The translations under genes were made by a program, and so were the position numbers. The notes below the pieces were generated by a model, which worked only from the letters and a program-made list of their open reading frames with translations, was not told the DNA's origin and searched no databases. From Bacilli bacterium (lineage in GTDB: Bacteria; Bacillota_I; Bacilli_A; RFN20; CAG-826), in NCBI GenBank assembly GCA_050952725.1, contig JBMNLN010000001.1, positions 578,454 to 642,453 on the forward strand: a stretch of DNA of 64,000 nucleotides, in the 5' to 3' direction. This document shows, piece by piece, positions 782 to 21,542 of the stretch (its first letter is position 1; each line of letters starts with the position of its first letter).

Positions 782-1310
782 AGTTGAAAAAAAAGCCAAA
801 GAAGATGCCTTAAACTTACTAAAAAAAGCTAATATCATCCTTAGTGACAAAGAGAAAAATCAATTAGAATTCTGTGATTATGGCTTAGATAATTTCGAAA
901 AAGTAGGGACGATGATTTTAATTTATGTCAACACTTCAAGAGTGTGTGCAAAGGAGATTATTTTGATGCCTTACCAAATTTGTCCCGAGCATATCCATCC
1001 TCAATTAGGTGATTATCCTGGAAAAGAAGAAACGTTTAGATGTCGCTATGGCGAAGTTTATCTCTATGTTCCAGGCGAAAAAGTAGAGAATCCGCGCGCG
1101 CGTATTCCTAATGGAAAAGAAGATGTCTACACCGTTTGGCACGAAATCGTTCTTAAACCAGGCGATCAGTATACGATGAAAGAAAAAACACTTCATTGGT
1201 TTCAAGCGGGACCAGAAGGAGCGGTTGTTTCGGAATTTTCCACACCGAGTTTTGATGAGGCGGATATCTTTACTGATCCCGAAATTAAAAGAGTAGGGAA
1301 ATTTAACTAA
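768..1310 (+). CDS. D-lyxose/D-mannose family sugar ketol-isomerase (cupin, YdaE-like)
   Basis: Motifs 'CAKEIILMPYQICPEHIHP', 'GKEETFRCRYGEVYLYVPG', 'LHWFQAGPEGAVVSEFST' match B. subtilis YdaE-type D-lyxose isomerases. Confidence 0.9.
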   Translation: MKMTKVEKKAKEDALNLLKKANIILSDKEKNQLEFCDYGLDNFEKVGTMILIYVNTSRVCAKEIILMPYQICPEHIHPQLGDYPGKEETFRCRYGEVYLYVPGEKVENPRARIPNGKEDVYTVWHEIVLKPGDQYTMKEKTLHWFQAGPEGAVVSEFSTPSFDEADIFTDPEIKRVGKFN

Positions 1311-1498: not shown

Positions 1499-1527
1499 TT
1501 TACATTAGCGCTAATGTAATATATCAT
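1499..1527 (+). promoter_or_regulatory. sigma70/sigmaA promoter of the glycan operon
   Basis: TTTACA (1499-1504), 17-bp spacer, TATCAT (1522-1527), 22 bp upstream of ATG 1550 with RBS GAGG at 1537. Confidence 0.7.
1500..1519. promoter_or_regulatory. Perfect 20-bp palindrome, putative LacI-family operator
   Basis: TTACATTAGCGCTAATGTAA is its own reverse complement, has the AGCGCT core typical of LacI/GalR operators, and overlaps the -35 box and spacer. Confidence 0.8.
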
Positions 1528-1549
1528 GAAATTGAAGAGGTACAAACAT

Positions 1550-3349
1550 ATGAAAAAAAATACCAAACTTTTTGGCGTCTTCGCTGCTCTATTTTTGTGT
1601 GCTTTGACTGCTCCCTTAGTGGGGTGTAGAGGCGGACAAGGCAGTTCTGTAAGTGAATCTATCGATGAGAACCCCGATGTGACGATTAAAATTTCATCTA
1701 CTGTCAATCAAGTGCCAATCGGGGGCACTATCACCATTCGGGTGTTAGTTATGGGCACAGCATCACGTGATGTGACTTGGTCAACATCAAACAGCAATAT
1801 TGCTACAGTCGATGGTGGCACCGTAACGGGGATTGCGGTTGGCGAAGTTGATATTACAGCAACTTTAGTCGCTTATCCAAGTAAAAGCGCCACACAGAGA
1901 GTCAATGTTATTGAAGCGACAGCTCCGACATCAATTAACGCGGGGGAAACCAATCAGCTCGGTTGGGTGGATGAAAACATTACCCTAGATTTAGAATTTG
2001 TTCCCGAAACCGCTGATAAACGTGTCAATTACACTTCGAATAATCCTGCTGTTGCAATTGTTAATGATGAAGGAGTAATTTCCTTCTTGAAAAAGGGTAC
2101 AGCTAATATCACCATTACTTCGTTCCTAGATTCAACCATCTCCACAACAATTAATTTCACAGTGAAAGATGGTCCTTTCTGGACGAACAAAGGTGGTTAC
2201 AGCAATTATTTTGATTATAGCCATCAAGGTGATGAAACCGATCCGTATGTTTCGACGAATTTCACGATGACTGGCGATAATTTACCAACATATGCTTGGT
2301 TTAAACTCCAACCTACTCAAAGATACTATGCTGAGGCAACGATTAGTTTTGGCGAAACCACGGTCGATCCCTGGACGAGAGTTGGCATTGGTTCGGCGAC
2401 AACAGATACCGATACCCGCGCTTTCTATTTCTCGGATAAGGAAGGACAAAAAACGATGATGCTCGATTTCCCAGTGGAATTTGGTGGCAATCAACACCAA
2501 AGCACGATTTGGCGCGTTAATGGAATCTATGCGATTGATAAAACCGACTTTAAATTAGGAATCTTACGCGATGGCAATGATTACTACTATACGATTAATG
2601 GTAAATTGTACTGGTTTGAAGAAAATAATCGCTTTACTGGCATTGGCAGCACTCCATTAATTATCGGGAAGGATGTAGCCTTTACTATTTTTGATGCCTA
2701 TAGCACAGTTGATGAGGAAGTCATTACTGCCAAACTTAATTCAGATGCCTACAAGGAGAGGTTCTTTTCAGCGTCTTCCTTAGGCGGACAAGTAATTTAC
2801 ACTAAAGATACCGATAGTTGGCGATTTAACAATCTTGGACGTGAGGATTGGAATAACATCTGTATGGGGCAACAACGGGCAAAAGCTCTAGGTGATAAAG
2901 GTCTTGCAAAAGGAAATTTCAAAATTGAATTTGATATTTCTGCGGTCGAATTTGAAGAGACAAATATTGCTAACTCGATGGCTGGTGTCACCATGAGACG
3001 ATATAACTCGTGGGAACCTGACATGGAATCCATCTGCTTAACAAAAGATCATATTCAATATCGGCATTGGAACTTAGAGTCACCAACCAACGCTTTTGAA
3101 ACAGGTAAATTAACTGCAGTTGATTCAGCGACATTTGCTTTGGTTGATGTGGAAAAAACTTATCACATTGCAATTGAACGCACGATCCTTGGTGCCCGTA
3201 GTGAATTCAAAGTGACGATGGATGGTGAAGTGATTCAATTTAATGAAGCGGACACTTATCGTGTCAACTTTATTGGCAAGTATTTAGTTTCCTTTGGTGC
3301 TAACGATTGCAAAGCCACAATTTCCAACTTTACGATTACTAATCTTTAA
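1550..3349 (+). CDS. Surface lipoprotein with two Ig-like (Big_2-type) domains and two unassigned beta-rich domains
   Basis: Start ATG 1550 after RBS. Lipobox LVGC, Ser-rich linker, Big_2 motifs 'VTWSTSNSNIATVDGGTVTGIAVGEVDITAT' and 'VNYTSNNPAVAIVNDEGVISFLKKGTANITITS'. Paralogous to 3390..5255. Confidence 0.8.
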   Translation: MKKNTKLFGVFAALFLCALTAPLVGCRGGQGSSVSESIDENPDVTIKISSTVNQVPIGGTITIRVLVMGTASRDVTWSTSNSNIATVDGGTVTGIAVGEVDITATLVAYPSKSATQRVNVIEATAPTSINAGETNQLGWVDENITLDLEFVPETADKRVNYTSNNPAVAIVNDEGVISFLKKGTANITITSFLDSTISTTINFTVKDGPFWTNKGGYSNYFDYSHQGDETDPYVSTNFTMTGDNLPTYAWFKLQPTQRYYAEATISFGETTVDPWTRVGIGSATTDTDTRAFYFSDKEGQKTMMLDFPVEFGGNQHQSTIWRVNGIYAIDKTDFKLGILRDGNDYYYTINGKLYWFEENNRFTGIGSTPLIIGKDVAFTIFDAYSTVDEEVITAKLNSDAYKERFFSASSLGGQVIYTKDTDSWRFNNLGREDWNNICMGQQRAKALGDKGLAKGNFKIEFDISAVEFEETNIANSMAGVTMRRYNSWEPDMESICLTKDHIQYRHWNLESPTNAFETGKLTAVDSATFALVDVEKTYHIAIERTILGARSEFKVTMDGEVIQFNEADTYRVNFIGKYLVSFGANDCKATISNFTITNL

Positions 3350-3389
3350 TTTGTCTTCATCGATATCAACTTTTTAAAGGAGAAAGAAA

Positions 3390-5255
3390 ATGAAAAATAG
3401 GAAAATCTTTTCGATTGTCAGCCTTTTCCTTCTTTTAAGTGTCGTCTCATGTCAACATGGCAGTTCGCAATCGCAAGATTCAACTAGCATTGCCGCACCG
3501 ACAATTGTTATCGAAGAAGTCGGTCAAACAGCAATTTATGTTGGTGATGAACTGCAATTGACGGCGACAGTTACCAATAATATCGACAATTTAACGCTCA
3601 AATGGAAATCCTCTAACGAAGAAATCGCTACTGTTAGCGATGCTGGACTTGTCAGGGCGCTCGCTCCAGGTAATGTCAACATCTGCGCTTATTTACAAGG
3701 CACAGAAATTACGAGTAATATCATTGCCCTTGGTGTTTTAATGCCGATTCCGATGACTGGAGTGGAAATTACGAATGTAATTGATCAGTATTTCCTCATT
3801 GATCAAACTCTTGATATCACCGTAGCGCTAACCCCAAATAATGCGCGTAACGACCTCGAGTTAATAGCTGAACCGAGTGCCAAAGCTGAAATTAACGGGA
3901 TGTGCGTCAAATTCCTTGATGAGGGAAACATCACCTTAACTGTAAGAAGTCGCGCGAATAATGAAGTTCAAGCACAAGTGATGGTTCAAGTGTTAGAAAA
4001 GAGCCCTTTCTTGCAAATGTCAAAAGGCTATTCGCTCAATATGTCCTTTCAAAACATGTTGAAATTAGAAAATGCCTATATCGATGTGAAGGATTATAGC
4101 GATGAAAACGAAAACCCCTTCCATCAAGCGATTGCGAATATAACGGCTACTCGGTTTTATTTCGAAACGCGCATCAACTTACAAAACTATCGTGGTGGCG
4201 AACACGGTTGGCCATATGTCGGGGTGGGCCATGCGACCGAAGTTTCTAATTATCGGGAAGGCCGTGCTTTATTCTTCTCACCGATGGATGAACATAAAGT
4301 AGTGACAATGGATTTAGGCAAATGCTTTGCGGCCGAGGGAAGTCCTCAAGATCAATTCTCCTTGTCCTACCAAGCAAACGGCTTAAAAGATATGGATATC
4401 ACCGCCTTAAAACTCGCGGTTTTACGTGATGAAAATGAATTCTATTTCCTCATCAATGATGTCCTTTATGGATATGAAGTCCGCGATTATACCAGCATTC
4501 CCACCAATCCAATCATTTATGGTAAGGATACTTATCATAAAATGAGCGATTGGTACATGACAACGGATGCCGATGTTATCAATGCCAAATTGCAAGGTCA
4601 AAATTACAAAAATATCTTTTTCCCTGGGAGAGATAATACTGTGGTCGACAATGAGAATAAAACGATTACCTTCTCTTGTAAGGATGGTAATAAATGGGAA
4701 GATAGTTACGCTGTGGCGACCTATGCTAAAACCATTGGTGATAAAGCTCTACTCGAAGGTGATTTTGAAATTGAATACGACATTACCGCGATTCATGCGA
4801 CAACTAACGAAATTGCAAAGCGCTTGAGTTTAATGTTATTACGCGCTGATACTTATCCCCATCTTTATGATTGCTTCGGTGTCAATAACTGGTGGTGGGA
4901 AGACAATAACGAAGTCTATGGAGCCGAGTATAAAACTTGGTCCGAAGGACAACCAGCCTATTCCTCAGCGAACGTGGTTAATGGTCGTATTGGCGATGAT
5001 GGCGTCCGGCAAAAACCTGCTGAACCTAACGATCACGTGGTGGGTCATTACAAAGTGACGCGCGTGATTGAAGGAGGAAAATCGGTCTTTACCTGGACTT
5101 TTACCCAAGCGGGAACGGATAAAACTGAAAATGTCTTTGCTTTCACTGGTAAAGAAAATGTCAAAGTGAGTTACACTGGTCGTTACCGGATTAATTTTGG
5201 TGCCGCTTGTGTCGATGGAACAATTGCGAACTGGACTTGGAAAAACATCGAATAA
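3390..5255 (+). CDS. Surface lipoprotein with Ig-like (Big_2-type) domains and two unassigned beta-rich domains (paralogue of previous gene)
   Basis: RBS AAGGAG, lipobox VVSC, Big_2 motif 'LKWKSSNEEIATVSDAGLVRALAPGNVNICAY'. Collinear similarity to 1550..3349, e.g. KLAVLRDENEFYFLIN vs KLGILRDGNDYYYTIN. Confidence 0.8.
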   Translation: MKNRKIFSIVSLFLLLSVVSCQHGSSQSQDSTSIAAPTIVIEEVGQTAIYVGDELQLTATVTNNIDNLTLKWKSSNEEIATVSDAGLVRALAPGNVNICAYLQGTEITSNIIALGVLMPIPMTGVEITNVIDQYFLIDQTLDITVALTPNNARNDLELIAEPSAKAEINGMCVKFLDEGNITLTVRSRANNEVQAQVMVQVLEKSPFLQMSKGYSLNMSFQNMLKLENAYIDVKDYSDENENPFHQAIANITATRFYFETRINLQNYRGGEHGWPYVGVGHATEVSNYREGRALFFSPMDEHKVVTMDLGKCFAAEGSPQDQFSLSYQANGLKDMDITALKLAVLRDENEFYFLINDVLYGYEVRDYTSIPTNPIIYGKDTYHKMSDWYMTTDADVINAKLQGQNYKNIFFPGRDNTVVDNENKTITFSCKDGNKWEDSYAVATYAKTIGDKALLEGDFEIEYDITAIHATTNEIAKRLSLMLLRADTYPHLYDCFGVNNWWWEDNNEVYGAEYKTWSEGQPAYSSANVVNGRIGDDGVRQKPAEPNDHVVGHYKVTRVIEGGKSVFTWTFTQAGTDKTENVFAFTGKENVKVSYTGRYRINFGAACVDGTIANWTWKNIE

Positions 5256-5257
5256 AA

Positions 5258-6412
5258 ATGAAAAAGTTTGCTCTGCTTTTGCCGTTATTTCTCATCCTTT
5301 GTTCTTGTATAAAGAATAATGGTTTAAGCAGTTCTTCAAGCGAAAATTCACAGCAACTTACATCAAGTCCCTACCGAAATTCTTTATGTTTAAAAGACGA
5401 AAATGGCGATGATATCCCCTTTTTCGGCGCTGATCCCGATATCATCAAAGGTGATGACGGATATTATTATTTGTATACTTCGGAGCAATATGTCAATGTT
5501 CCCAAACGGGGGCGAATGTTAGATCGCTGTCCAACTTATCGCAGTCGCGATATGGTGAATTGGACATATTGCTCCAGTGTCTTTTTGGACCAAGCTGTCG
5601 ATTTAAATAGTTTTTGTTACCCCGATGTAGGAATCTGGGCTCCATCCATTAACTATTTCAACGGTCAATATTATTGTTATTACTCTATCGGATATGGATG
5701 GACTGCTGGAGATAATCATCTTGAATATTGTGGGATTGGTCTTGCGACTTCCTTAAACCCCTATGGTCCTTGGACTCATTACGGTAAATTATTTGATTCC
5801 AAAGAATGCGGTGTGCCCGTCTCCATTGATCCCTTTGCCTTTCAAAAAGAAGATGGCAAAATATATCTATTTTGGGGTTCTTATAATGGGATATATGCGG
5901 TTGAAATGACAATTGATGGACTGGAAGTAATTGATTTAGAAAAAAAGATTGAAATTGTCGATCCAACCCCCTCCCTTAGCGAGAGTTACGAAGGGATATA
6001 TATCTTTAAAAAAGATGACACCTATTATTTTTCTGGCTCTCGGAATGGATTTGGCGGAGGATTACATTCTCGCTATGATGTGGCAAGCGGATATGCTTCT
6101 TCATTACTCGGACCTTATAAAGATTCGACTGGTCATGACTTATTTGGCGGGGGAGATCTAGTTATTGAAGGTGATTTCGAAGATGAGTATGGCTTACGTG
6201 GAACTGGGCATCACGCAATTATTCAAGATGAAATTGGCGATTATTGGATTATCTATCATTGCTATGATCCCCGCTGCCCAGTTGCTAATGAGCGCACCAT
6301 CTGTATTGACAAACTTATTTTTGAAGATAACCACACTTTCCATACGGAAAATTATGTAGGTTCTAACACTGTCAAAAATGGACCAAAAGTGGAGGTGTAC
6401 GCGCATGAATAA
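5258..6412 (+). CDS. GH43 glycoside hydrolase (arabinanase-like branch), lipoprotein
   Basis: Start ATG 5258, lipobox LCSC. Five-blade propeller catalytic motifs ADP (GADPDII), WAP, SIDPF, YEG, and GTGHHAI. Confidence 0.9.
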   Translation: MKKFALLLPLFLILCSCIKNNGLSSSSSENSQQLTSSPYRNSLCLKDENGDDIPFFGADPDIIKGDDGYYYLYTSEQYVNVPKRGRMLDRCPTYRSRDMVNWTYCSSVFLDQAVDLNSFCYPDVGIWAPSINYFNGQYYCYYSIGYGWTAGDNHLEYCGIGLATSLNPYGPWTHYGKLFDSKECGVPVSIDPFAFQKEDGKIYLFWGSYNGIYAVEMTIDGLEVIDLEKKIEIVDPTPSLSESYEGIYIFKKDDTYYFSGSRNGFGGGLHSRYDVASGYASSLLGPYKDSTGHDLFGGGDLVIEGDFEDEYGLRGTGHHAIIQDEIGDYWIIYHCYDPRCPVANERTICIDKLIFEDNHTFHTENYVGSNTVKNGPKVEVYAHE

Positions 6413-7649
6413 GTTAAAGAGAATTATCTTATTGGCCCCAGTTCTACTTTTTGTTGCTTGTGACATCAAACCAATAACGGACGAACAAGAATCATCTAAT
6501 TCAGGTGAAGCGAGTTATTCTTATGCGAGTGATTCTTTTGAGTTTCCCGATGTGGACATCGCTCCCAAACAGATAATTTTTGAAAATCCGTTGCGCTTCA
6601 AAATCAATGAAAATGGTGAAACGGATTACGCTCCCATCGCCGATCCATTTGTGATGCATGCCGATGATGGTTATTTCTATCTTGTTTGTTCCAATACTTA
6701 TGTGCATTCATTAACCGAAGGGCGCAAATTTGATTATGGGGCGATTTTTCGAAGTCCTGATTTAGATAATTGGGTCTATGTGAGCAGTGTCTTTGAAGAT
6801 GCCGATAATCCGTTTGCTTGGTATGAATGCGCTGATGAAGGAATCCGGATTCAAGTTAATGCGCCCAATCTTACTAAGGTGGGCAAACATTATATTTACT
6901 ATTACACTTTAACCGCTGGACAACTGCACAATCCAGGTATTGGTTATGCTTATTCCTTGAATCCTTACGGACCATGGACTCAAGGGGGAAAATTATTTAC
7001 CAGCAATGAAATAGGTGTTTATAACTCCAGTGACCAAGATATCTTTATCGATGATGATGGCCAAATTTATATCATTTGGGGTTCTGGCGATGGCATTTGG
7101 GTTTGTGAATTAGCTGAAGATGGGATGTCCTTAAAGGGCGGTCTTGAATATGCAAAACAAAACAAAAAATGGATTGCTGGTTGGGCGAATGAATTAGGGA
7201 ACAATATGCATAATTATGAAGCTGCCAATGTTATTAAGCGGAATAATCGCTATTATCTTTTCTTATCAACTGGAGGATGGGATGGCGGGGCTAATGCGGG
7301 ATATCACACCTTAGTTTGTGCGTCTAATTCAATTTACGGACCTTACTTTGATTCTCTTAATCGCGATATGAAAAGCGCCTATCAAGGCGATGACGTCTTG
7401 TTACCAGATAAAGATTATGTCTCAGGCGTCGGTCACTCCTGCGTTTACCGAGATGATAAAGGTGATGATTGGATTTTCTATCATGGATATGATCAAATTG
7501 GACGTTGCGAAGAAAATAATAAGCGAATACTATTCGTTGATAAATTAATTTATAACTCAGAAACAGGGATGCCGTATGTGTTGGATTATACCCCCTCATA
7601 TGGAGAACAATTTGGTCCCTATGTAGAGAGGTGCGCTTATGAAAATTAA
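6405..7649 (+). CDS. GH43 glycoside hydrolase, lipoprotein, with variant active-site motifs
   Basis: Start ATG 6405 after GGAGG, lipobox FVAC. IADPF and YEAA retained; WAP replaced by NAP and SIDP by SSDQD. C-terminal GVGHSCV. Confidence 0.87.
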   Translation: MNKLKRIILLAPVLLFVACDIKPITDEQESSNSGEASYSYASDSFEFPDVDIAPKQIIFENPLRFKINENGETDYAPIADPFVMHADDGYFYLVCSNTYVHSLTEGRKFDYGAIFRSPDLDNWVYVSSVFEDADNPFAWYECADEGIRIQVNAPNLTKVGKHYIYYYTLTAGQLHNPGIGYAYSLNPYGPWTQGGKLFTSNEIGVYNSSDQDIFIDDDGQIYIIWGSGDGIWVCELAEDGMSLKGGLEYAKQNKKWIAGWANELGNNMHNYEAANVIKRNNRYYLFLSTGGWDGGANAGYHTLVCASNSIYGPYFDSLNRDMKSAYQGDDVLLPDKDYVSGVGHSCVYRDDKGDDWIFYHGYDQIGRCEENNKRILFVDKLIYNSETGMPYVLDYTPSYGEQFGPYVERCAYEN

Positions 7650-8793
7650 GATAAAATCATTTTTTCTCGTGCTTACGACGATTTTATGGGGGTGTACAAA
7701 ACCACCGCTTGAAAACAGCGTGAGCGAAGATATTTATAAAGAACAAGGTGATGTCAACAATTCTTATACCAACCGCTTGCCGATTCATAAACAAAATGGA
7801 GAGGAAGAGTTTGTGCCAACTGCCGATCCCTTTTGCTTTCGTGACGATGATGGCACGTTTTATCTTTATTGTTCCAACACTTATTGCACCCAAGCTGATG
7901 ATGCGGAAGTGACTTTAGATTATGGGCCAATCTTCAAAAGTCAAACGATGACTTCGTGGCAGTGGTGTGGTTCGGTTTTCCGCGGTCAAGAAACTTATGC
8001 ACTTTGGAATAATGGCGAAGGCGGGGTTTGGGCTCCGACAGTTATCAAAATCAATAATCACTACAACTTTTATTACACCTTAGGTGCTGGTGGTTTTTAT
8101 AGCGAATATACCGGGATTGGTGTTGCGACTTCCCCGACACCTTACGGACCTTGGACACACTATGGGAAAGTCTTCAATTCTGGTGAAATTGGCGTAGCCA
8201 ATTCCATTGACCCCTATGTCTTCATTGATGATGGAAAAATCTTGATGGCGTTTGGAAGTGGTGATGGGATTTGGATTGTAGAATTAAATGCTGACGGGAC
8301 AGCTTTAAAAGATGGATTACAAGCGCAATACAATAACAAGCGACAAATCGCAGGTTTTAATATTTTTCAACAAGATAATTACGAAGCCTGTTTCATTCAA
8401 AAGAAAAATGGTTATTACTACATCTATCTTTCAACTGGTAGTTGCTGTGCGGGATTATCCTCCACCTACCACGTTGTGGTTGGGAAAAGCGAATCAGTTT
8501 ATGGCCCCTATCTGGGGAGTAATGGCAAACCGATTGATACCTATAATCGCGGCGATACTGTAGTTGAAAGTCATATGACCAAGGGAACTGGAACGGGACA
8601 CTGTGCAATCATTCAAGATAGTCGTGGTCTAGATTGGATTGTTTACCACGCTTATGATCCGAATGAAGAAGGATGGAAACAACATGAACGCGTCCTTTAT
8701 ATCGATCGCCTATATTGGAATGAAAAAGGCTATCCCCTTTGTAAGGACCGTTATCCAACTCATGAAGAAGTGCCAGGACCATATCTTGAATAA
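7639..8793 (+). CDS. GH43 glycoside hydrolase (arabinanase-like branch), lipoprotein
   Basis: Lipobox LWGC. Motifs TADPF, VWAPTV, NSIDPY, YEA, STGSCC, GTGHCAI. Confidence 0.9.
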   Translation: MKIKIKSFFLVLTTILWGCTKPPLENSVSEDIYKEQGDVNNSYTNRLPIHKQNGEEEFVPTADPFCFRDDDGTFYLYCSNTYCTQADDAEVTLDYGPIFKSQTMTSWQWCGSVFRGQETYALWNNGEGGVWAPTVIKINNHYNFYYTLGAGGFYSEYTGIGVATSPTPYGPWTHYGKVFNSGEIGVANSIDPYVFIDDGKILMAFGSGDGIWIVELNADGTALKDGLQAQYNNKRQIAGFNIFQQDNYEACFIQKKNGYYYIYLSTGSCCAGLSSTYHVVVGKSESVYGPYLGSNGKPIDTYNRGDTVVESHMTKGTGTGHCAIIQDSRGLDWIVYHAYDPNEEGWKQHERVLYIDRLYWNEKGYPLCKDRYPTHEEVPGPYLE

Positions 8794-8807
8794 GGAGGAA
8801 TTAGCGA

Positions 8808-11777: not shown

Positions 11778-11794
11778 TAGGGAGGTAATCACAT

Positions 11795-13339
11795 ATGTCG
11801 AAAAAGAAATTCTTAGTCTTAGCCTGCACGAGCATTGTCGCATTAGCCGCGTGCGGAGGCGGGCCAACCTCTACCTCAAGTGGTGGCGGTGTTCCCTCGG
11901 TTGACCCTTACGTCGATGATACGATTGATGATGTGTCTTATGATGGGAATGGTGATATCGTTTTTGATAATGTGAAGTTAAAAATGTGGTCGGTTTGTAC
12001 CGATCCTGATGCGGCTTATCAAGATGAAATCATCAATGATTTTAACACGGCATACAAAGGCCAAATTGAGGTGGAAATCTATCACGAATCTCGTTATACC
12101 ATCTTTGGAAATTTTGCCAAAACCGTTTCGCAAGATCCTAATAATGCACCTGATTTATTCTATGGATACGGTGAAAGAATTGGAGCGATGGTCAGCAATA
12201 AGCTTTTTGTTCCGATGGACATTTATCTCGAAGCGGCTAATATTGGTTTTAACAAATCATATTTTGAACCGATACTAATCGATAACTGCTATGTGAGTGG
12301 TTACTTATATGGTTTACCGATTTCAGTCGATACTTCAATAGCTTTCTGTCGCAAAGACATCCTGACGAAAAACAATTTAGAAGTTCCGTATACTTATGCG
12401 GAATTAATGGATGTCTGTAATGCTTTAGTTTCAAAGGCCAACGCGGGCGAATTGTGGGTTCGTGGGAATGATACCGCTAATGTCGCGCTCGGCAATGTCT
12501 ATGAGTGGCGAAAATACGACGTTGAAGTTGAAGGGACATACTATCCATTTCCGATTTCTCCTGGTGATATGTGGGTCAATGCTTATATCGCTCAAACTGC
12601 CGCTTTGCAAAATGGCGGAATTTTAGTCGATGAAAACGGTATGCCAGCATACAATACTATGGAAGTTGCTAATGGTTTACAATTGCTTCGCGATTGGCTA
12701 ATCCCCACGGAAACAAGCGCTAATAACACAGCCCTTAGTAAAATCGATTTAAACTATGACGCTGGCGTTACCGATTTCTATGCTGGGACCTCTGCCTTCT
12801 ATCTTGCGGGTGCATGGGATGGTTATGGGAATACCGCAAGAATGGACACGATGTATGCGGCCGACGGTGGTTCAAGTAATACGATGGCCATCATCAATCC
12901 TTCAGAATTATTCGCCGCTGACTTAACGAAAGATTATGCCAAACACATCTTTGGAGATTCGCATGCGGTATCGATTGTAAAAACCGTTACCAGTCGTACA
13001 AAAAGAATCGCGGCTGCAGTTTTTAGCAATTATTTAGCTGAGAATTGCGGTGGAGTTTGGATAAAAGCTGGACATTTACCAGCCTCCTTAGTGGTCCAAC
13101 AATCCAATGATTTATATCTTAACAATGAGTTTTACTTAAAATATGTCCAATATTATGGAACGACTGATTTGTATCGAACGATGCCAGTCACGGTTTATTA
13201 CGATTTCATCATGGAATCCTTCGGTACCGCGTTAAAGAAGGCAATGCTCTCTCGTTATCGCGAAATTCCAATCTCACAACTATTGCAAGAATCCTACGAT
13301 GATTGTATTGCCCGAATTAGAGATCTTGAAGAATTATAA
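11795..13339 (+). CDS. Carbohydrate ABC transporter substrate-binding lipoprotein
   Basis: Lipobox LAAC, 'APDLFY', 'LYGLPISVDTSIAFCRKDIL...PYTYAEL' typical of family 1 sugar-binding proteins. Followed by two permeases. Confidence 0.92.
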   Translation: MSKKKFLVLACTSIVALAACGGGPTSTSSGGGVPSVDPYVDDTIDDVSYDGNGDIVFDNVKLKMWSVCTDPDAAYQDEIINDFNTAYKGQIEVEIYHESRYTIFGNFAKTVSQDPNNAPDLFYGYGERIGAMVSNKLFVPMDIYLEAANIGFNKSYFEPILIDNCYVSGYLYGLPISVDTSIAFCRKDILTKNNLEVPYTYAELMDVCNALVSKANAGELWVRGNDTANVALGNVYEWRKYDVEVEGTYYPFPISPGDMWVNAYIAQTAALQNGGILVDENGMPAYNTMEVANGLQLLRDWLIPTETSANNTALSKIDLNYDAGVTDFYAGTSAFYLAGAWDGYGNTARMDTMYAADGGSSNTMAIINPSELFAADLTKDYAKHIFGDSHAVSIVKTVTSRTKRIAAAVFSNYLAENCGGVWIKAGHLPASLVVQQSNDLYLNNEFYLKYVQYYGTTDLYRTMPVTVYYDFIMESFGTALKKAMLSRYREIPISQLLQESYDDCIARIRDLEEL

Positions 13340-13360
13340 GAAAAATTAGAAAGAGAAAAG

Positions 13361-14359
13361 ATGGGATTAAAGAGAACTAGTCAAGGCATTTCTGTTAGTG
13401 AGTATGCCGTCAAGGTTGAGAGACAACGCCAAATCTTTAGAAAATATTGTATTGGCTTCCTTTTCTTAGCGCCTTATCTTTTCTTTTTCGTTCTCTTTTT
13501 TGCTGTCCCATTCTTTAAAGGAATTACGATTTCCTTCTTCAGATATAATATCGCCGATACAACTGATATCGTTTGGAGAGGGGTGCAAAATTACACCAAG
13601 ATTTTATTTGATAAGAATTCAACTTACTATAAAACTTTTTGGAATGGGATGAAAAACACTTTGATGGCTACGGCGATTTTAGTACCTTTATCCATTGTCA
13701 TCCCTTTGCTGCTTGCGACTTTAGTAAATACCAAACCAGTAGGATATAAGTTCTTTAGAGCGATTATTTATCTTCCTTCAATTTTTCCAATGACAGCGAC
13801 GGGAGTGATTTTCCTTAATTTATTCAACAATAATTACGGTTTTGTCAGCGCGATTTTTGGCGATCATATTAATTGGTTAATGGACCCGACCTATAACTGG
13901 ATTCTGATTATTTTCTTCTGTATATGGTCGGGGATTGGCGGAAATTTTATTATCTTTTTAGCGGGCTTACAAACAGTTGATCCCTCCCTCAAAGAAGCTT
14001 CATCTATCGATGGTTGCAATCTGACCAAGAGATTTTTTCATGTGACCTTAGCGCAGATTAAACCGCAATTAATTTTATGTTTTTTTAACACAACGATTGG
14101 GTACATGAATCTGTATGGACAAAACTACCTTTTAGGTCAATATGTCTCCGATCGGATGCAAATTCAAACCACGGTTTTTGTGATTCAAGAGTTGATGATG
14201 GGCACCAACTTCCAAGTTTATGGAATGGTTTCAGCAATGGCGATTTGTCTAGGTTTATTTATCATGACGATTTCAATCATTCAATTAATTGTTACAAGAG
14301 AACGGAAAGGGGGGAACAAGCATGCTAAAGAATACTTCAGCATCAAGGGAGCCAATTAA
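13361..14359 (+). CDS. Carbohydrate ABC transporter permease (MalF-type)
   Basis: Multiple TM segments, EAA loop 'LKEASSIDGCNLTKRFFHVTLAQIKP'. Confidence 0.93.
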   Translation: MGLKRTSQGISVSEYAVKVERQRQIFRKYCIGFLFLAPYLFFFVLFFAVPFFKGITISFFRYNIADTTDIVWRGVQNYTKILFDKNSTYYKTFWNGMKNTLMATAILVPLSIVIPLLLATLVNTKPVGYKFFRAIIYLPSIFPMTATGVIFLNLFNNNYGFVSAIFGDHINWLMDPTYNWILIIFFCIWSGIGGNFIIFLAGLQTVDPSLKEASSIDGCNLTKRFFHVTLAQIKPQLILCFFNTTIGYMNLYGQNYLLGQYVSDRMQIQTTVFVIQELMMGTNFQVYGMVSAMAICLGLFIMTISIIQLIVTRERKGGNKHAKEYFSIKGAN

Positions 14360-15188
14360 AATTGTTGCTTTCTTTGTTTTGCTGTTTTTCAGTGTCATTG
14401 TGCTTTTTCCGCTTCTATGGGCAGTAGTTAACTCCCTTCGCGAAGCAGAAGATATCTTTTATTATCCTAATTCCTTTTTCCCAACCAGCCTCAGTAAATG
14501 GACATTTGGCAATTATAAGGATGTTTTTGCTAATGATAATTATCCCGTGGGTCGATGGTTTTTGAATTCTTTATTTGTCTCTTCATTATCAACCATCTTT
14601 TATGTGATAATCGCCTCACTTGCTGCGTACGCTTTTGTTTTCTTAAAACTTCAGTTTGCAAATGCCTTGTTTTACTTTTTAATCGGAACGATGACGATTC
14701 CGGGCATTGTCATCATGGTGCCCCAATTCACTCAAATGGTCGACTTTGGACTAATTAAAAATTTATGGGGATTAATTCTCCCAGGATTAGGCGGAGTTTA
14801 TGGGCTTTTCTTAATTAGACAATTCTTTATGTCTATTCCTTTTGATTTGATTGAATCCTCGCGGATTGATGGAGCGAAAGACTACAAAATTTTCTTGAAA
14901 GTCGTCGTTCCTTTAGGGAAATCAATTTTATTGGTCCAGGGGATGTTCGGATTTTTAGGCGCTTGGAACGATTTACAATGGGCACAATTAATTGTCGCGC
15001 AAGCCCCAAAAGAAATGTGGACATTAGCCGTCGGTTTAGCCAAAGTGACAGAAGGAAATTTAACTTACTCGCGCTTAGGTTTGCAATTAGCTTGTACGAT
15101 TATCTCCATGCTTCCCATCTTATTCATGTATTTATTCGTGCAAGATAAGATTGTCGAAGGTGTGGCTATGTCAGGTATTAAAAGGTAA
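14322..15188 (+). CDS. Carbohydrate ABC transporter permease (MalG-type)
   Basis: Start ATG 14322 after GGGGGA. EAA loop 'LIESSRIDGAKDYKIFLKVVVPL', 'FLGAWND', C-terminal 'VEGVAMSGIK'. Confidence 0.93.
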   Translation: MLKNTSASREPIKIVAFFVLLFFSVIVLFPLLWAVVNSLREAEDIFYYPNSFFPTSLSKWTFGNYKDVFANDNYPVGRWFLNSLFVSSLSTIFYVIIASLAAYAFVFLKLQFANALFYFLIGTMTIPGIVIMVPQFTQMVDFGLIKNLWGLILPGLGGVYGLFLIRQFFMSIPFDLIESSRIDGAKDYKIFLKVVVPLGKSILLVQGMFGFLGAWNDLQWAQLIVAQAPKEMWTLAVGLAKVTEGNLTYSRLGLQLACTIISMLPILFMYLFVQDKIVEGVAMSGIKR

Positions 15189-15201
15189 AAGGTGAACAAT
15201 T

Positions 15202-16992
15202 ATGGATATTTATCAACCAATGAATCCCCAAGAAGCCAAGAAGGCGTTCCAAAAGATGAATCGACAAATTATCGATGATAACGTCAATGCTTTTGTGTGT
15301 TTAAAAGACATCAATAAAATCTATCCTAACGGTGTCCACGCGGTTTACAACTTTAATATTGATATTAACAAGAACGAATTTATTGTTCTTGTCGGTCCTT
15401 CAGGCTGTGGCAAATCAACGGTTTTACGGATGATTGCTGGATTAGAAGAAATCACGAGTGGATATTTATATATCGATAAAACTTTGGCAAATTCTCAACC
15501 GAGTAAAGACCGCAACATCGCCATGGTCTTCCAAAGTTATGCGCTGTATCCGCATATGAATGTTTTCGACAATATGTCATTTTCCCTAAGGATTAACAAA
15601 GCTCGCTTACCTAAATTGAATAAAAACGGCGAACAAGTTTATGGAATCGATACTAAGGAAATCAGAAAAATCAAACGCGAATTAAAGAAAAATCCAGAAG
15701 ATCAAGATTTAATTGCGAAGCTCCATGATTATGAAAATAATCTGAAACCTTTGTATGTAAAACGAAATTATACGAAGGATGAATTAAACAAGATTGTCTT
15801 TGATGCCGCAGAAATTCTCAATCTAGGAGAATATTTAGATCGAAAGCCAAAAGAATTATCAGGTGGACAAATGCAAAGAGTCGCGCTTGGACGCGCGATT
15901 GTCAGAAACCCCAAACTTTTTCTGATGGATGAACCATTAAGCAACCTTGATGCCAAATTAAGAGTATCGATGCGAAGCGAACTAGTGCGGATTCATAATG
16001 ATGTTAAAGCAACAACTATTTATGTCACTCATGATCAAGTTGAAGCAATGACCATGGCTGATCGAATTGTCGTCATGAATAAGGGATGGATTCAACAAAT
16101 CGCCACCCCACAGGAATTATATGAGAGCCCAAGCAATATTTTTGTCGCGACCTTTATCGGTTCTCCTGCAATGAATTTGATTGAAGGAACATATAACAAG
16201 GGAAGCATCACTTTTAAAAATGGTGACATTCTTAAATTAACTAAAGACGAAAAGAAATCCTATGAAAAGTTTATTGAGGAATCTTTAACTTATTATCACT
16301 CCCTGCAAAAATTGATTGAAAAATCGCATATTGAGTTGCTCGAACAAATCGATAGCATCACTTCATTATTAGATGAGAACGGTTTTAACGATGAGGTTCA
16401 AATGTTTTTTAAGTCAGTCCTCAATTTGGTTTTTAGTGATGAAAAACAGCCGCGATTTGCAAAGATTATTCCTGAAATAAACCTTGTTTTAGAAAAGAAG
16501 AGCAAGTTATTAGCCCAGAAAAATCTTAAAAAATTGCAAGAGTTAATTCTCGAAGAAGAAACGGAGGTTTCAAAGGCAATCGAAAAAATCAATTCAAATA
16601 AATATTCCTCAATAACAGCAAATAAAGCACCCGTTTCCAAAAAGAAAAACAAACAAATTGTTAAGCGCAACTTACTGGATGATAAGAAGATTATTGATGA
16701 ATATATTGCCCAATATCAATCCTCAAAAGATGGCAACCATCGTATATTTGTTGGAATCCGTCCAGAATATTTTAATTTAGATAATTCCCAAGATAACTTT
16801 ATTTTAGAGATTAAAGGTCAGGTTGAACAAGAATATCTTGGTACTGAAACCCTACTTCACTTTGATTATTGTGGCACAGAAATTATCGCTAAATTGCCGA
16901 GCAAAACTTTTACGTCTAGGCAAAATCTTCGCCTAACTGTAAGCAATGATAAGATGTTTATTTTCGATGCGATTAGTGGATTAAGAATATAG
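15202..16992 (+). CDS. Sugar ABC transporter ATP-binding subunit (MalK/MsmX-like) with two large insertions
   Basis: Walker A GPSGCGKS, Q-loop VFQSYALYPHM, signature LSGGQ, Walker B FLMDEPLSNLD, YVTHDQ. 596 aa versus ~370 aa for typical MalK/MsmX. Confidence 0.93.
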   Translation: MDIYQPMNPQEAKKAFQKMNRQIIDDNVNAFVCLKDINKIYPNGVHAVYNFNIDINKNEFIVLVGPSGCGKSTVLRMIAGLEEITSGYLYIDKTLANSQPSKDRNIAMVFQSYALYPHMNVFDNMSFSLRINKARLPKLNKNGEQVYGIDTKEIRKIKRELKKNPEDQDLIAKLHDYENNLKPLYVKRNYTKDELNKIVFDAAEILNLGEYLDRKPKELSGGQMQRVALGRAIVRNPKLFLMDEPLSNLDAKLRVSMRSELVRIHNDVKATTIYVTHDQVEAMTMADRIVVMNKGWIQQIATPQELYESPSNIFVATFIGSPAMNLIEGTYNKGSITFKNGDILKLTKDEKKSYEKFIEESLTYYHSLQKLIEKSHIELLEQIDSITSLLDENGFNDEVQMFFKSVLNLVFSDEKQPRFAKIIPEINLVLEKKSKLLAQKNLKKLQELILEEETEVSKAIEKINSNKYSSITANKAPVSKKKNKQIVKRNLLDDKKIIDEYIAQYQSSKDGNHRIFVGIRPEYFNLDNSQDNFILEIKGQVEQEYLGTETLLHFDYCGTEIIAKLPSKTFTSRQNLRLTVSNDKMFIFDAISGLRI

Positions 16993-17001
16993 GTAGAAAA
17001 G

Positions 17002-17994
17002 ATGAAGAATAATCAATACATGAACCCAATTTACAAACACGAATTTCCCGATCCGACTATTGGCAAAGTTGGCGATACTTATTATTTGTATTCTACTGCT
17101 GCTTTTGGCGATTATCATGAAAATGGCCAGCCTTTCTTTTCTCGCGGGGTGATTATTAAGAGTAAGGACCTCTGTAATTATGAATATGTAGGCGAAATTT
17201 TTTCCGAGGATGAATACCCTAGATGGGGCACTAAAAATGCTGGGGTTTGGGCACCGGACTTTCTTGCCTTAAACGGAAAATACTATCTGTACTATTCACT
17301 TTCAATTTTATTTGATGATAATGCTTCAATTGGTATCGCTGTTAGTGATTCGCCTGAAGGCCCTTTTAAAGATTTAGGTCCAATTATTAGGTCGAAAGAT
17401 ATCGAGGTCAATAACTCGATTGATCCGACCGTCTTTCGCGCATATGATGGAAAATTATATATTATTTGGGGCTCATATCGTGGCATTTATGGCTCCGAAC
17501 TCAGTGATGATGGTCTTGCGCTTGTAGGTGAAAAAAAACATATTGCCGGCTTTGATAAGGGCGAAATTGACTTGGACACATATGAAGCGGCGTTCATGGT
17601 CAAAAGAAAAGGTATGTATTATCTATTTTTTTCCACTGGTAAAACTCTAGATGGTGATAAATGCACCTATCATGTTGTTTGTGCTAAGAGCAAATATCCT
17701 CTCGGTCCGTTTTCCGATAGCCAAGGTAACACATTGCAAGGTCGGAATGAGGGGGATGTTGTCGTTACTGGGCTTGATAACCACTTTGTTGGAACTGGGC
17801 ATTGTTGTGTAAAGGAAGTAGGAGGAGATTTTTGGATTTTCTATCATGGAGTTGAAATTGACCAAAAATATCCAGAAGGATACTCGCGCCGTATCTTAAG
17901 TATGGATAAATTGCTTTGGGATGAAAACGAGATGCCATATGTCGAAGGTAAAGTTTGCTCCTATCAAGAATTAAAAGAGGGTCCCAAAGTATGA
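17002..17994 (+). CDS. GH43 glycoside hydrolase, cytoplasmic (no signal peptide)
   Basis: FPDPTI, VWAPDF, NSIDPT, YEAA, GTGHCC motifs. N-terminus is hydrophilic. Confidence 0.9.
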   Translation: MKNNQYMNPIYKHEFPDPTIGKVGDTYYLYSTAAFGDYHENGQPFFSRGVIIKSKDLCNYEYVGEIFSEDEYPRWGTKNAGVWAPDFLALNGKYYLYYSLSILFDDNASIGIAVSDSPEGPFKDLGPIIRSKDIEVNNSIDPTVFRAYDGKLYIIWGSYRGIYGSELSDDGLALVGEKKHIAGFDKGEIDLDTYEAAFMVKRKGMYYLFFSTGKTLDGDKCTYHVVCAKSKYPLGPFSDSQGNTLQGRNEGDVVVTGLDNHFVGTGHCCVKEVGGDFWIFYHGVEIDQKYPEGYSRRILSMDKLLWDENEMPYVEGKVCSYQELKEGPKV

Positions 17995-18095
17995 GTAAAT
18001 ATCGATGCTATCAATATGAAAAAGGAGGATTTACTTATCGAATTTAGAAAAAGGAAAAAATTTTTAGGTGAAAAATATCATGAAAGGAGAAAAAT

Positions 18096-19340
18096 ATGTT
18101 CACTAAAAAACGAAAAATAAATATTATCTTTTCGACTTTAGTTGTCGGCATGACACTTCTTGCTGGTAACGGCTTGATGAATTCGCTGCACAAATCAGCA
18201 AAAGTGGTCGGTGATTTCACTTACACCGTAACACTAGATGATACTTTGGTAATCGGTGATTACACATCGTTTAACGCTAAAACAGGTTTAGGCAATGATG
18301 TGGAAATGAAAGCCGTTGGCGCTTCCGCCTTTAACACCGGATTTATCACCTTAGCTAGCGAAGGTTATGTCTATAACAATGCGGCAATCACTGGCATTGG
18401 TCGAGTCACAGTCGTTTTAGCAAGCGGGAATGCCGCATTATCTTATGGAGTTTACGCAGATGATTTTACGAAAACCGTCAATATTACTTCGGGCACGGAA
18501 ATCACCCTTGATTATGCTAGTAACTTCTTTAAAATTGCAGCAGGTGTAGGTGGGGCTAAAATTGAAAGCGTCTTAATCAAATTTGAGTGCTTGGAAGCGA
18601 AGAAATACGATATCCATTGGGTCGGACGTGTTTCCGAAAGTGTGGAAGACAAAGGTGTCACCTTTAACACTAGGCAAGAAACGGCGATGGCTGGTTGGGG
18701 CATTCTCGATTGGGATACCGCTGAATTAAAAGCGGGATTTGGTCTTTTAACTGGTAATTTTATCGTCGAATTCGATTTGGATACGATTGAAGCAGAAAGT
18801 AACAACCATCAATACAAATTCGCTTTAGCGCTCAAACGTGTTAACGAAAACCATGAGGGCTTCTTTGTTTCGGATCGGTTTGGGATGAGCAACCAATACT
18901 GGAATGATAATAATGAAGTGTGCGGCATTGATTATCGTGCGCTTAAGAGTAATCAACCTGGTTATGGTAATGCCGATGGGATTGATCCTAATTATATTTA
19001 TGGGGTTGATGGTGATACCAAAGTAGCGATGAGCCGAGTGGGTAATGTAAAACATGAACTAATTGGCCACATCACTGCAAACGTCAACGTTGTCGGTCAT
19101 CACAAAATCGAACGGACAATTGTCGATACGACCTCGACTTTTGTTTGGACCTTCAAGAGCGTTGGTACTGAAACTTATGTCAACGTCATGCAATGGGCGG
19201 TCGACTACACTGGACCCAGTAAACCTAACTATGCAACTTCAACCACGATTACCACGCATTATTTAGGTGATTATGCGGTTTCATTTGTCGCCGCTGGTGT
19301 CAATGCTTCGTTTAGCAATTACAAAGCAACCATACTATAA
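18096..19340 (+). CDS. Secreted/membrane-anchored protein of unknown function sharing its C-terminal domain with the two Ig-lipoproteins
   Basis: RBS AAGGAG; basic then hydrophobic N-terminus with no lipobox. C-terminal 'LLTGNFIVEFDL...RFGMSNQYWNDNNEV...VVGHHKIERTI' aligns with 'LLEGDFEIEYDI...CFGVNNWWWEDNNEV...VVGHYKVTRVI' of 3390..5255. Confidence 0.75.
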   Translation: MFTKKRKINIIFSTLVVGMTLLAGNGLMNSLHKSAKVVGDFTYTVTLDDTLVIGDYTSFNAKTGLGNDVEMKAVGASAFNTGFITLASEGYVYNNAAITGIGRVTVVLASGNAALSYGVYADDFTKTVNITSGTEITLDYASNFFKIAAGVGGAKIESVLIKFECLEAKKYDIHWVGRVSESVEDKGVTFNTRQETAMAGWGILDWDTAELKAGFGLLTGNFIVEFDLDTIEAESNNHQYKFALALKRVNENHEGFFVSDRFGMSNQYWNDNNEVCGIDYRALKSNQPGYGNADGIDPNYIYGVDGDTKVAMSRVGNVKHELIGHITANVNVVGHHKIERTIVDTTSTFVWTFKSVGTETYVNVMQWAVDYTGPSKPNYATSTTITTHYLGDYAVSFVAAGVNASFSNYKATIL

Positions 19341-19414: not shown

Positions 19415-19463
19415 TTAATCGAAAAAATATTCGATAGTTTTTATGTTGGAGGTAAGGCTTAAA

Positions 19464-20390
19464 ATGAAATTTGAAAGCCGATTGCTAGTTTTGGCGTTAC
19501 CGTTTCTTTTAGTATCTTGCCAAAAGGGAAATCTGAGTATGGATTCAAGTTCTTCCTCAAACACAAGCGTTAATGTTAGCGATCATGCGCGCGTGATTAT
19601 CTTAGCTGGTCAATCAAATATGGAAGGAAATTCCTGGATTAATCATCTAGAAAATCATTATGACAAGCAACAGATTAGACTTTGGACTGAAGGATATGAA
19701 TCCTCCCAGATTATCTTTAATAATTCTTGGGGAAACTACACTTCTTTTAATCGCTATGAAAAAGTCGAATTAGGTCAAGGTATGAGCATGAACCATTTTG
19801 GCCCCGAAGTTGGAATTGCTGAAACTATTGATATGGCTGGATTTAGCGAACCAGTTTATATGATTAAATTTGCTTGGGGAGGCTCCAATCTCTATAATCA
19901 ATGGCGATCCCCCTCAAGTGGCGAGACTGGTCCGCTTTATGTGCAATTTGTCGACTTTATCAAAAGTTCTTTACTAACCTTAGAAATCAAGGGATTAACC
20001 CCAAAAATTCACGCCTTATGTTGGATGCAGGGAGAATCGGATGCGGATAATAATACACCAAATCCGGATAGTTATTATCAAAGATTAAAAGATTTTATTA
20101 CCGATCTTCGCGAGGAATTTAATGATTACGCCTGTAATACGGGGATTGGTTTTGTGGATGCTTATATTTCGGATTCATATGTATGGGCGCGATATCAAAC
20201 GGTTAATGCAGCCAAAAAACAACTTGCTGATGAAGATGAACTCAACACCGTTATTGATACTATTGCCTTAAAATTACCCTATGACAAAGAGCCGACCGCC
20301 GGCGTTGATCCTTATCACTATGATTCTAATGGGATGATTGAATTAGGTCGGGCATTTGGGGCAACTTTATTTGAACGATTTCTCTATTAA
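19464..20390 (+). CDS. SGNH carbohydrate esterase (SASA/DUF303, CE6-like), lipoprotein
   Basis: Start ATG 19464 after GGAGG, lipobox LVSC. GQSNM nucleophile motif, WMQGESD, and DxxH (DPYH). Confidence 0.88.
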   Translation: MKFESRLLVLALPFLLVSCQKGNLSMDSSSSSNTSVNVSDHARVIILAGQSNMEGNSWINHLENHYDKQQIRLWTEGYESSQIIFNNSWGNYTSFNRYEKVELGQGMSMNHFGPEVGIAETIDMAGFSEPVYMIKFAWGGSNLYNQWRSPSSGETGPLYVQFVDFIKSSLLTLEIKGLTPKIHALCWMQGESDADNNTPNPDSYYQRLKDFITDLREEFNDYACNTGIGFVDAYISDSYVWARYQTVNAAKKQLADEDELNTVIDTIALKLPYDKEPTAGVDPYHYDSNGMIELGRAFGATLFERFLY

Positions 20391-21350: not shown

Positions 21351-21542
21351 AGTTGCTAAATATATCTTAAATATGAATCTACGTTTTAAAATTCTTTGAC
21401 AATTTAATGTTATCATTAATCTGGGTTTCAGACTATTGTGTTTAACTCTATCGTATAAATAATGCGATGCCAAACTTTATGAAAAGGTCATATATTAACT
21501 ACACTCAATATTTTCTATATAATAATTGTAGGAGGTAAAACA

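Follow-up and report, generated by a model that had tools for sequence, protein, structure and literature searches.

Predicted ConA-like domain families in the surface proteins of a GH43-based glycan locus of gut Bacilli

Introduction

The SusE and SusF binding proteins of Bacteroidota are among the described systems closest to the proteins considered here. They are lipid-anchored, consist of an N-terminal immunoglobulin (Ig)-like spacer followed by tandem beta-sandwich domains, and are encoded as adjacent paralogues beside the glycoside hydrolases (GHs) and the transporter of one glycan locus. Here we analyze three surface proteins, P1, P2 and P3, encoded in a 64,000-nucleotide stretch of DNA (the window) from a Bacilli bacterium; the window spans bases 578454-642453 of a genome that is a single contig of 1.33 Mb with ~38% G+C. 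Set beside SusE and SusF by description, P1 and P2 are likewise lipid-anchored, non-catalytic by prediction, built from an Ig-like spacer and tandem beta-sandwiches, and encoded as neighboring paralogues in a glycan locus. Unlike SusE and SusF, they belong to a small-genome member of the Bacilli with an ATP-binding cassette (ABC) importer instead of SusC/SusD, and their domains are predicted to be concanavalin A (ConA)-like rather than SusE/F-type starch-binding modules, with no sequence relationship between the two.

A second point of comparison is provided by carbohydrate-binding modules (CBMs), of which CBM66 (LamG-like) and CBM6/35 are appended to GH43 enzymes and esterases. Small-genome gut Bacilli that have not been cultured are frequent in the guts of humans and animals, including those sampled from the Hadza, and to our knowledge their acquisition of glycans is essentially unstudied. 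From the open reading frames (ORFs) and Pfam matches, bases 35-21473 of the window form one glycan locus. Its gene order is a DeoR regulator, a lyxose/mannose-isomerase-like cupin, P1, P2, three GH43 lipoproteins (GH43a-c), a GH38 alpha-mannosidase, a substrate-binding protein (SBP) lipoprotein, two permeases, an ABC ATPase, a cytoplasmic GH43, P3, a SASA esterase, and a divergent LacI gene. For the surface GH43 enzymes, the nearest solved structures found by a PDB search are endo-alpha-1,5-L-arabinanases (E~3e-30).

Results

P1, P2 and P3 have a C-terminal domain in common

BLASTP aligned P1 with P2 from end to end (25% identity, E=7e-44), the last ~190 residues of P2 with P3 (32% identity, E=8e-22), and the C-terminus of P1 with that of P3 (23% identity, E=3e-4). 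All three pairs are thus significant, the weakest being P1 with P3. An alignment of the three C-termini contained 27 invariant columns, and a profile made from them matched these three copies and no others in the 1.33-Mb genome. Judged by these alignments, the C-termini of P1, P2 and P3 are homologous. A preliminary description of this DNA, made from the sequence alone, had aligned the three C-termini by eye, and all the motifs it quoted were found where it had placed them. It had also seen a second, middle domain in P1 and P2, which is present by BLASTP and by the alignment of relatives, with the motifs VGIGSAT..TRAFYFS, KLGILRDGNDYYYTING and PLIIGKD common to both proteins. The P1 middle domain starts at 2168, the coordinate at which the region of that description began. 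Its locations for the C-terminal domains were right, but the domain starts slightly earlier than it had placed the borders, at ~2738 in P1, ~4593 in P2 and ~18597 in P3.

Coordinates of all features are collected in Table 1, and P1 residues are counted from the ATG at 1526. Pfam assigns the N-terminal ~160 residues of P1 and P2 to Big_2 (PF02368); the middle and C-terminal domains lie outside that match, and we propose that the P1 Big_2 pair serves as a spacer. P3 carries the C-terminal domain, with the signature seen in P1 and P2 (F, E, D, R, D, H, R, Y, G, Y, N), behind a different N-terminal module, as had been supposed. This module of ~130 residues is kept in the relatives P0005-P0007, and its kinship with the Big_2, middle or C-terminal domains was rejected because hhalign gave no relation to any of them. 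An origin of the middle and C-terminal domains by internal duplication was likewise rejected (hhalign E=0.18, not significant). The C-terminal domain of P2 belongs to a subfamily with a Trp-rich insert, FGVNNWWWEDNNEV, which is also present in P3-type proteins.

In the translations, lipoboxes ([LVI][ASTVI][GAS]C closing the signal peptide) were found on P1 (LVGC, Cys34), P2, GH43a-c, the SBP and the SASA esterase, and the lipobox Cys column is at least 90% conserved among 18 relatives. Two relatives of P3 (P0005 and P0007) do carry lipoboxes, unlike P3 itself. A promoter-like sequence, TTTACA-17-TATCAT (1499-1527), overlaps the first P1 ATG, and because its -10 box ends at 1527, the start of P1 is likelier the ATG at 1550 (MKKNTKLF...) than that at 1526. 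In a scan for promoters and terminators, the counts equaled those of chance.

Both domains fall outside described sequence families

When P1, P2 and P3 were compared with Pfam, only the two N-terminal Big_2 stretches of P1 and P2 were recognized and P3 had no match; NCBIfam gave no match on either new domain. Searching 24 family members singly against Pfam at E<=1 yielded no recurrent family. Laminin_G_1/2/3, Gal-bind_lectin, DUF1080 and similar models gave no match at E<=1 in P1-P3 or the 24 members, none of the Pfam CBM models matched the domains, and no hidden Markov model (HMM) similarity to the GH and polysaccharide lyase (PL) families in Pfam was seen in the same proteins. Neither single proteins nor profiles of three and 24 sequences gave a credible match to either domain when searched against PDB sequences, and literature searches found no description of the P1/P2/P3 domain family. 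In line with the expectation that no characterized Pfam family would cover these regions, the Pfam, NCBIfam and PDB sequence searches were all negative, and as far as these three sources reach, the middle and C-terminal domains are two undescribed sequence families.

A few scattered matches were set aside. GH43_C (E~1e-3, in one member) and poxvirus and UHRF1 chains (E>0.01) were inconsistent across members and were treated as chance. Relatives carry the precomputed labels PF26182 and PF26918, which denote the Ig-type families Ig_NUP210_5th and Ig_Eae. We rejected these as matches to the new domains, as both labels are absent from relative P0014, which is without Big_2 and has both new domains. 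Because members without Big_2 carry neither label, we place the two labels in the Ig region.

The tandem domains are predicted to be ConA-like jelly rolls

Relatives were pooled from same-order genomes, a library of 1.84 billion representatives and a collection of 5.8 billion clusters. Given an alignment of 39 rows over the middle and C-terminal domains, AlphaFold2 (AF2) modeled P1 residues 205-607 with a mean predicted local distance difference test score (pLDDT) of 93.9 and a predicted TM-score (pTM) of 0.91, all five models reaching at least 92.4. In the model, short helices connect two all-beta domains (model residues ~11-192 and ~205-403), and because the pTM is high, we read the two sandwiches as a fixed pair. 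A single-sequence AF2 model of P3 had a pLDDT of 34 and was not used for any inference.

Foldseek comparison of the whole two-domain model with the PDB gave 244 matches at E<=1e-3. The leaders were BT3469 (4jqt, 1.3e-9), tandem-repeat galectins (2wsu, 3wv6, 4fqz, 8yzq), laminin LG4-5 pairs, neurexin LNS pairs, botulinum-toxin binding-domain and NTNH chains, and the sialidase of V. cholerae, a protein with lectin wing domains. BT3469 and tandem galectin, LamG and LNS proteins made up the top 25. Identity in these matches was 8-12% over alignment spans of 370-460 columns, and because of these spans we take both domains to be aligned. Whole-model TM-scores were only 0.2-0.3, which we attribute to a different inter-domain geometry in the targets.

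Like the ConA-like superfamily (LamG/LNS domains, galectin carbohydrate-recognition domains, BT3469), both domains are predicted beta-sandwiches, of 11-15 strands, and the tandem pair aligns to tandem galectins, laminin LG4-5 and BT3469 with a Foldseek probability of 1.0 and E down to 1e-9. In layout, the closing strands (H-x-K-I-x-R-T-I ... Y-x-G-x-Y-L-x-x-G) are similar to those of LamG-type domains. Unlike the known ConA-like families, to which identity is ~10%, the two domains have their own conserved signatures and no Pfam or PDB-sequence match. The motif that galectins carry on the concave sheet (His-Asn-Arg ... Trp-Gly-Glu-x-Arg) was absent from the family sequence alignments, and the family members gave no HMM match to galectins. 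Both domains are therefore confidently predicted to be jelly rolls of the ConA-like (LamG/galectin) type, and no single family stands out as the nearest. The preliminary description had guessed at a ConA/LamG beta-sandwich, and the AF2 and Foldseek results support this for both domains.

The conserved residues form one signature per domain. In the middle domain these are Y268, E270, W283, R298, S303, K309, W329, N332, R348, Y354, N358, [DE]365, P377, D383 and D396; in the C-terminal domain, G456, [DE]457, F465, [ED]468, D470, R492, [DE]501, H547, R552, Y/F582, G584, Y586 and N601. Both sets are kept across all clades of the family, and the C-terminal set is also present in P3-type proteins. 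Position 365 is Asp or Glu in 100% of members, and in the C-terminal domain an E-x-D lies on the first long strand, with 92% conservation of each of its two residues. In GH16-like jelly-roll hydrolases, a pair or triad of catalytic carboxylates on one strand (ExDxxE-type) is invariant. E468 is replaced by Ser or Asn in several otherwise intact members, and D470 by Asn, Tyr or Thr in three. The conserved set fits a sugar or Ca2+ site and is also compatible with catalysis.

The family consists of old paralogue clades in gut Bacilli

The three-sequence C-terminal profile found 17 representative clusters among 1.84 billion and had matches in 18 of 301 same-order genomes, while the 24-sequence profile found members in 8 of 400 genomes sampled across the phylum (E<=1e-5). 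The named carriers are uncultured Bacilli, Mollicutes or Firmicutes metagenome-assembled genomes, 'Coprobacillus sp. CAG:826' and 'Bacillales bacterium UBA7581', and several of the records come from Hadza gut samples. We conclude that the family is rare and, among the representatives found, confined to uncultured small-genome gut Bacilli.

Nearly all members are lipoproteins of ~600 residues with a lipobox, two (sometimes more) Big_2 repeats, the middle domain and the C-terminal domain. Others have the P3-type architecture, in which a separate module of ~130 residues precedes the C-terminal domain (P0003, P0006, P0007). P0005 combines Flg_new repeats with two C-terminal domains, and P0010 (1134 residues) is a fusion of two complete middle-plus-C-terminal units, one of the A and one of the B type. 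The C-terminal domain thus stands on varied modules (Big_2 plus middle domain, the P3-type module, Flg_new repeats) and in duplications, which agrees with the mobility that had been suggested for it.

The middle-domain and C-terminal-domain trees agree with each other and contain three clades: clade A, which is P1-like and supplies the first gene of the pair; clade B, which is P2-like and supplies the second; and clade C, whose members have an 'SPYWDxSHQAD' motif. In the C-terminal tree, P2 and P0002 (67% identical) are sister to the P3-type domains with a Shimodaira-Hasegawa-like approximate likelihood ratio test (SH-aLRT) support of 99, and P2, P0002 and the P3-type domains have the Trp-rich insert FG[VM]xNxxWxDNNEV in common. 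From this grouping and the common insert we conclude that the P3 type arose when a clade-B-like C-terminal domain was copied onto a new N-module. The fusion is old, given that identity between P3 and P2 is as low as 32% and that other genomes have P3-type genes at the same position. The proposal that the domain had been shuffled within one locus is not supported, as P1 and P2 belong to old paralogue clades found in tandem in many genomes, the two trees are congruent, and the position of P3 is fixed. The domain combination is ancient and lineage-wide rather than an event within a single locus.

Members are linked to GH43/ABC loci and middle-type domains to catalytic modules

The same type of locus surrounded the family in every context examined, in all three clades. 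The A/B arrangement is LacI, clade A, clade B, two or three GH43 genes, (GH38), SBP, two permeases, a long ATPase, (GH36) and GH43. In the clade-C arrangement the order is two GH43 genes, SBP, permeases, ATPase, the clade-C lipoprotein, a divergent second paralogue, SASA and LacI. The second paralogue (locus L035, 10968-12353; also L036-L040) is 22-26% identical to P1 over 380-520 residues, and because it lies directly 3' of the clade-C lipoprotein, the tandem-pair rule holds in clade C too. In the window and in orthologous loci, P3-type genes keep a constant place at the 3' end, where they follow the cytoplasmic GH43 gene, sometimes with GH36, and precede the divergent LacI gene. In the closest relative (locus L022), the SASA esterase stands before the lipoprotein pair, not after the operon. 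A gene for a 1019-residue reverse transcriptase (RVT_1; 3928-6987) lies upstream of the orthologous locus on the same contig, with PDDEXK and AAA neighbors.

A fuller profile revealed distant middle-type domains outside the lipoprotein family. In genome G527 (locus L053, 5838-12495), a 984-residue GH43 protein has two middle-type domains C-terminal of the catalytic domain, and the adjacent gene encodes a 1225-residue protein with Big_3 and with a GDSL esterase domain that is flanked by two more. These fusion genes stand behind LacI, SBP and permease genes, and the G527 locus is a fused version of the separate components of the window. In G434 (locus L048, 4639-15999), a frame of at least 3787 residues combines Flg_new, GDSL, GH88, a GLUG motif and up to six middle-type domains. 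Within the same genome as the window but outside it, an 864-residue lipoprotein (466723-469314, minus strand) has a weak middle-type domain at residues ~264-419 and no Pfam match; its N-terminal 'DGxLDEPxW' motif is similar to that of CBM9/DOMON-like modules. The middle-type regions of the fusion proteins had no Pfam match.

As with the CBMs of GH43 enzymes and esterases, middle-type domains thus stand on the same polypeptide as GH43, GDSL-esterase and GH88 catalytic modules, with one to six copies per protein. Because such catalytic modules are separate polypeptides in the window locus, this arrangement argues for a CBM-like role of the middle-type domain. Unlike these CBMs, the C-terminal-type domain was found fused to no catalytic module among the fusion proteins scanned.

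Discussion

P1, P2 and P3 define a real, rare domain family inside a very well-known fold superfamily, with a clear genomic role. Based on the fold, the surface location, the synteny and the fusion of middle-type domains to catalytic modules, we favor the interpretation that P1 and P2 are lipoproteins of the SusE/F kind that bind glycan at the cell surface without cutting it and serve the GH43/esterase/ABC system, with P3 as a third binder. We put the probability of this at roughly 55%. The paralogues P1 and P2 are only ~25% identical, a divergence that is common for binding proteins and that we count in its favor. With a lipid anchor, two Big_2 spacers and a rigid pair of ConA-like sandwiches, P1 and P2 would capture the target polysaccharide of the locus at the cell surface and hold it for the neighboring GH43 lipoproteins and the esterase. 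The glycan would be furanoside-containing, probably O-acetylated and of plant type, given the arabinanase-like GH43 enzymes and the SASA esterase. Oligosaccharides would then pass through the SBP and ABC importer to the cytoplasmic GH38, GH43 and mannose/lyxose-isomerase-like cupin. P3, secreted or anchored, would display the C-terminal-type domain on a different N-module. The whole arrangement could be regarded as a single-membrane analogue of the SusE/SusF-type binding proteins of Bacteroidota.

Several observations weigh against this interpretation. The ConA-like fold also houses enzymes (GH16, GH7, GH11, GH12, PL7, DUF1080), and BT3469, the top Foldseek match, was deposited as a 'putative glycosyl hydrolase'. 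Polar and acidic residues are conserved in both the middle domain (E270, R298, R348, Y354, position 365, which is always D/E, and D383) and the C-terminal domain (D457, E468, D470, E501, H547, R552, Y586), residues from which either a catalytic site or a site for sugar or Ca2+ could be built. The C-terminal-type domain is missing from the catalytic fusions, and where some loci have GH38, others have GH36 in its place or beside it.

The enzymes of this fold, the BT3469 deposit and the conserved residues speak for the alternative that one or both ConA-like domains are catalytic, as a new jelly-roll glycanase, a lyase or an enzyme of the 3-keto-glycoside-hydrolase type that makes the first endo-cut at the cell surface. 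The placement of conserved acidic, His, Arg and Tyr residues on beta-strands ([DE]501, H547, R552, Y586, and the invariably acidic middle-domain position) would suit an active site, as would the motif F-x-[IV]-E-[FY]-D, in which Glu and Asp, two residues apart on one strand, probably point to the same face. However, the Glu of this motif (E468) is lost to Ser or Asn in several intact members, its Asp (D470) has changed in three, and neither domain has HMM similarity to any GH or PL family. Three endo-arabinanase-related surface GH43 enzymes are already present in the locus. Furthermore, Ig spacers with tandem sandwiches, paralogue pairs of 25% identity, and fusions of the middle type to GH43, GDSL and GH88 are typical of binding modules. 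We consider a catalytic function unlikely.

Another explanation is that P1 and P2 bind no glycan and act through protein-protein contacts, as organizers of a surface complex of GH43 lipoproteins, esterase and SBP. The family strictly co-occurs with one set of lipoproteins, which is consistent with such a scaffold, and LamG/SPRY-type domains, which often make contacts between proteins, were represented among the Foldseek matches by the SPRY-containing ryanodine receptor RyR and by neurexin/laminin LG domains. The fusion of middle-type domains in cis to catalytic modules suits substrate targeting better, and we judge a pure scaffold improbable. That the proteins are adhesins for host mucus or for other cells or particles, merely co-regulated with the sugar locus, seems just as improbable, since all genomes examined have the genes at the start of the GH43/ABC operon and within it, which argues for a role in that pathway, even though Big_2 with a lectin fold resembles bacterial adhesins and the carriers are gut-associated.

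If P1 and P2 bind glycan, the family would add one or two CBM-type families to those known, serve as a marker by which such loci can be recognized in metagenomes, and be a case in which bacteria with ABC importers evolved SusE/F-like accessory binding lipoproteins; if the domains were catalytic, they would constitute a new enzyme family. In either case the predicted fold and signature residues are direct targets for expression, mutagenesis and ligand screening. Apart from function, the family is a conserved, locus-defining part of GH43-based sugar-harvesting systems that Pfam and NCBIfam annotation does not see. A bolder proposal, which we offer tentatively and hold to be rather doubtful as a whole, is that the domains are two new families of carbohydrate-active modules and that P1 and P2, together with the lipid-anchored GH43 enzymes, esterase and SBP, form a 'utilisome'-like complex around the ABC importer. 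Small-genome gut Bacilli, formerly labeled 'Mollicutes', may be the hosts of this complex as a single-membrane counterpart of the Sus paradigm. In a sharper variant, the C-terminal domain may be a new jelly-roll glycanase family that gives the locus its endo-activity.

Other features of the locus

Table 1. Positions of P1, P2, P3, their domains and other genes of the glycan locus (window coordinates)
Feature	Position	Strand	Basis and remarks
P1, clade-A lipoprotein	1526..3349	+	607 aa from ATG 1526; 599 aa from ATG 1550
P1 Big_2 Ig-like x2	1673..2161	+	Pfam PF02368, E=3.2e-12, 2 stretches
P1 middle domain (aa ~215-396)	2168..2713	+	AF2 model residues 11-192 with pLDDT >90, Foldseek, conservation; no Pfam model
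P1 C-terminal domain (aa ~405-607)	2738..3346	+	BLASTP, alignment, AF2, Foldseek; no Pfam model
P2, clade-B lipoprotein	3390..5255	+	621 aa; lipobox VVSC, Cys21
P2 Big_2 x2	~3495-3998	+	Pfam PF02368, E=4.5e-11
P2 middle domain	~4005-4583	+	BLASTP against P1, alignment
P2 C-terminal domain (aa 402-621)	4593..5252	+	BLASTP against P3, E=8e-22
P3	18096..19340	+	414 aa; hydrophobic N-terminal signal/anchor without lipobox Cys (translation)
P3 N-module, ~130 aa, beta-rich	18195-18596	+	No Pfam or NCBIfam match
P3 C-terminal domain (aa 168-414)	18597..19337	+	BLASTP, alignment, conserved signature
GH43 lipoproteins x3 (GH43a-c)	5258..8793	+	Pfam PF04616; lipoboxes in translations
GH38 alpha-mannosidase, SBP lipoprotein, two permeases, 596-aa ABC ATPase, cytoplasmic GH43	8808..17994	+	Pfam, translations, PDB search
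SASA-type carbohydrate esterase lipoprotein	19443-20390	+	Pfam PF03629
LacI-family regulator	20391-21473	-	ORF; LacI orthologues at the same position in related loci

The ORFs of the first two GH43 genes begin with TTG at 5207 and ATG at 6378. Internal ATGs at 5258 and 6405 precede the signal peptides and are probably the true starts.

The ABC ATPase (window 15202-16992) has 596 residues, compared with ~370 for MalK/MsmK-type ATPases. In the translation, an apparent Lys/Glu-rich, helix-like insert of roughly 190 residues separates the ABC domain from the C-terminal regulatory part, and the orthologues in related loci are likewise long (549-617 residues).

The cupin (window 768-1310) has 180 residues and a weak D-lyxose isomerase match (E=3e-5). 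Its gene adjoins the DeoR gene upstream of the operon, and the protein could convert mannose freed by the GH38 enzyme. Directly past the LacI gene, a predicted lipoprotein of 186 residues with no Pfam match is encoded at window 21543-22103.

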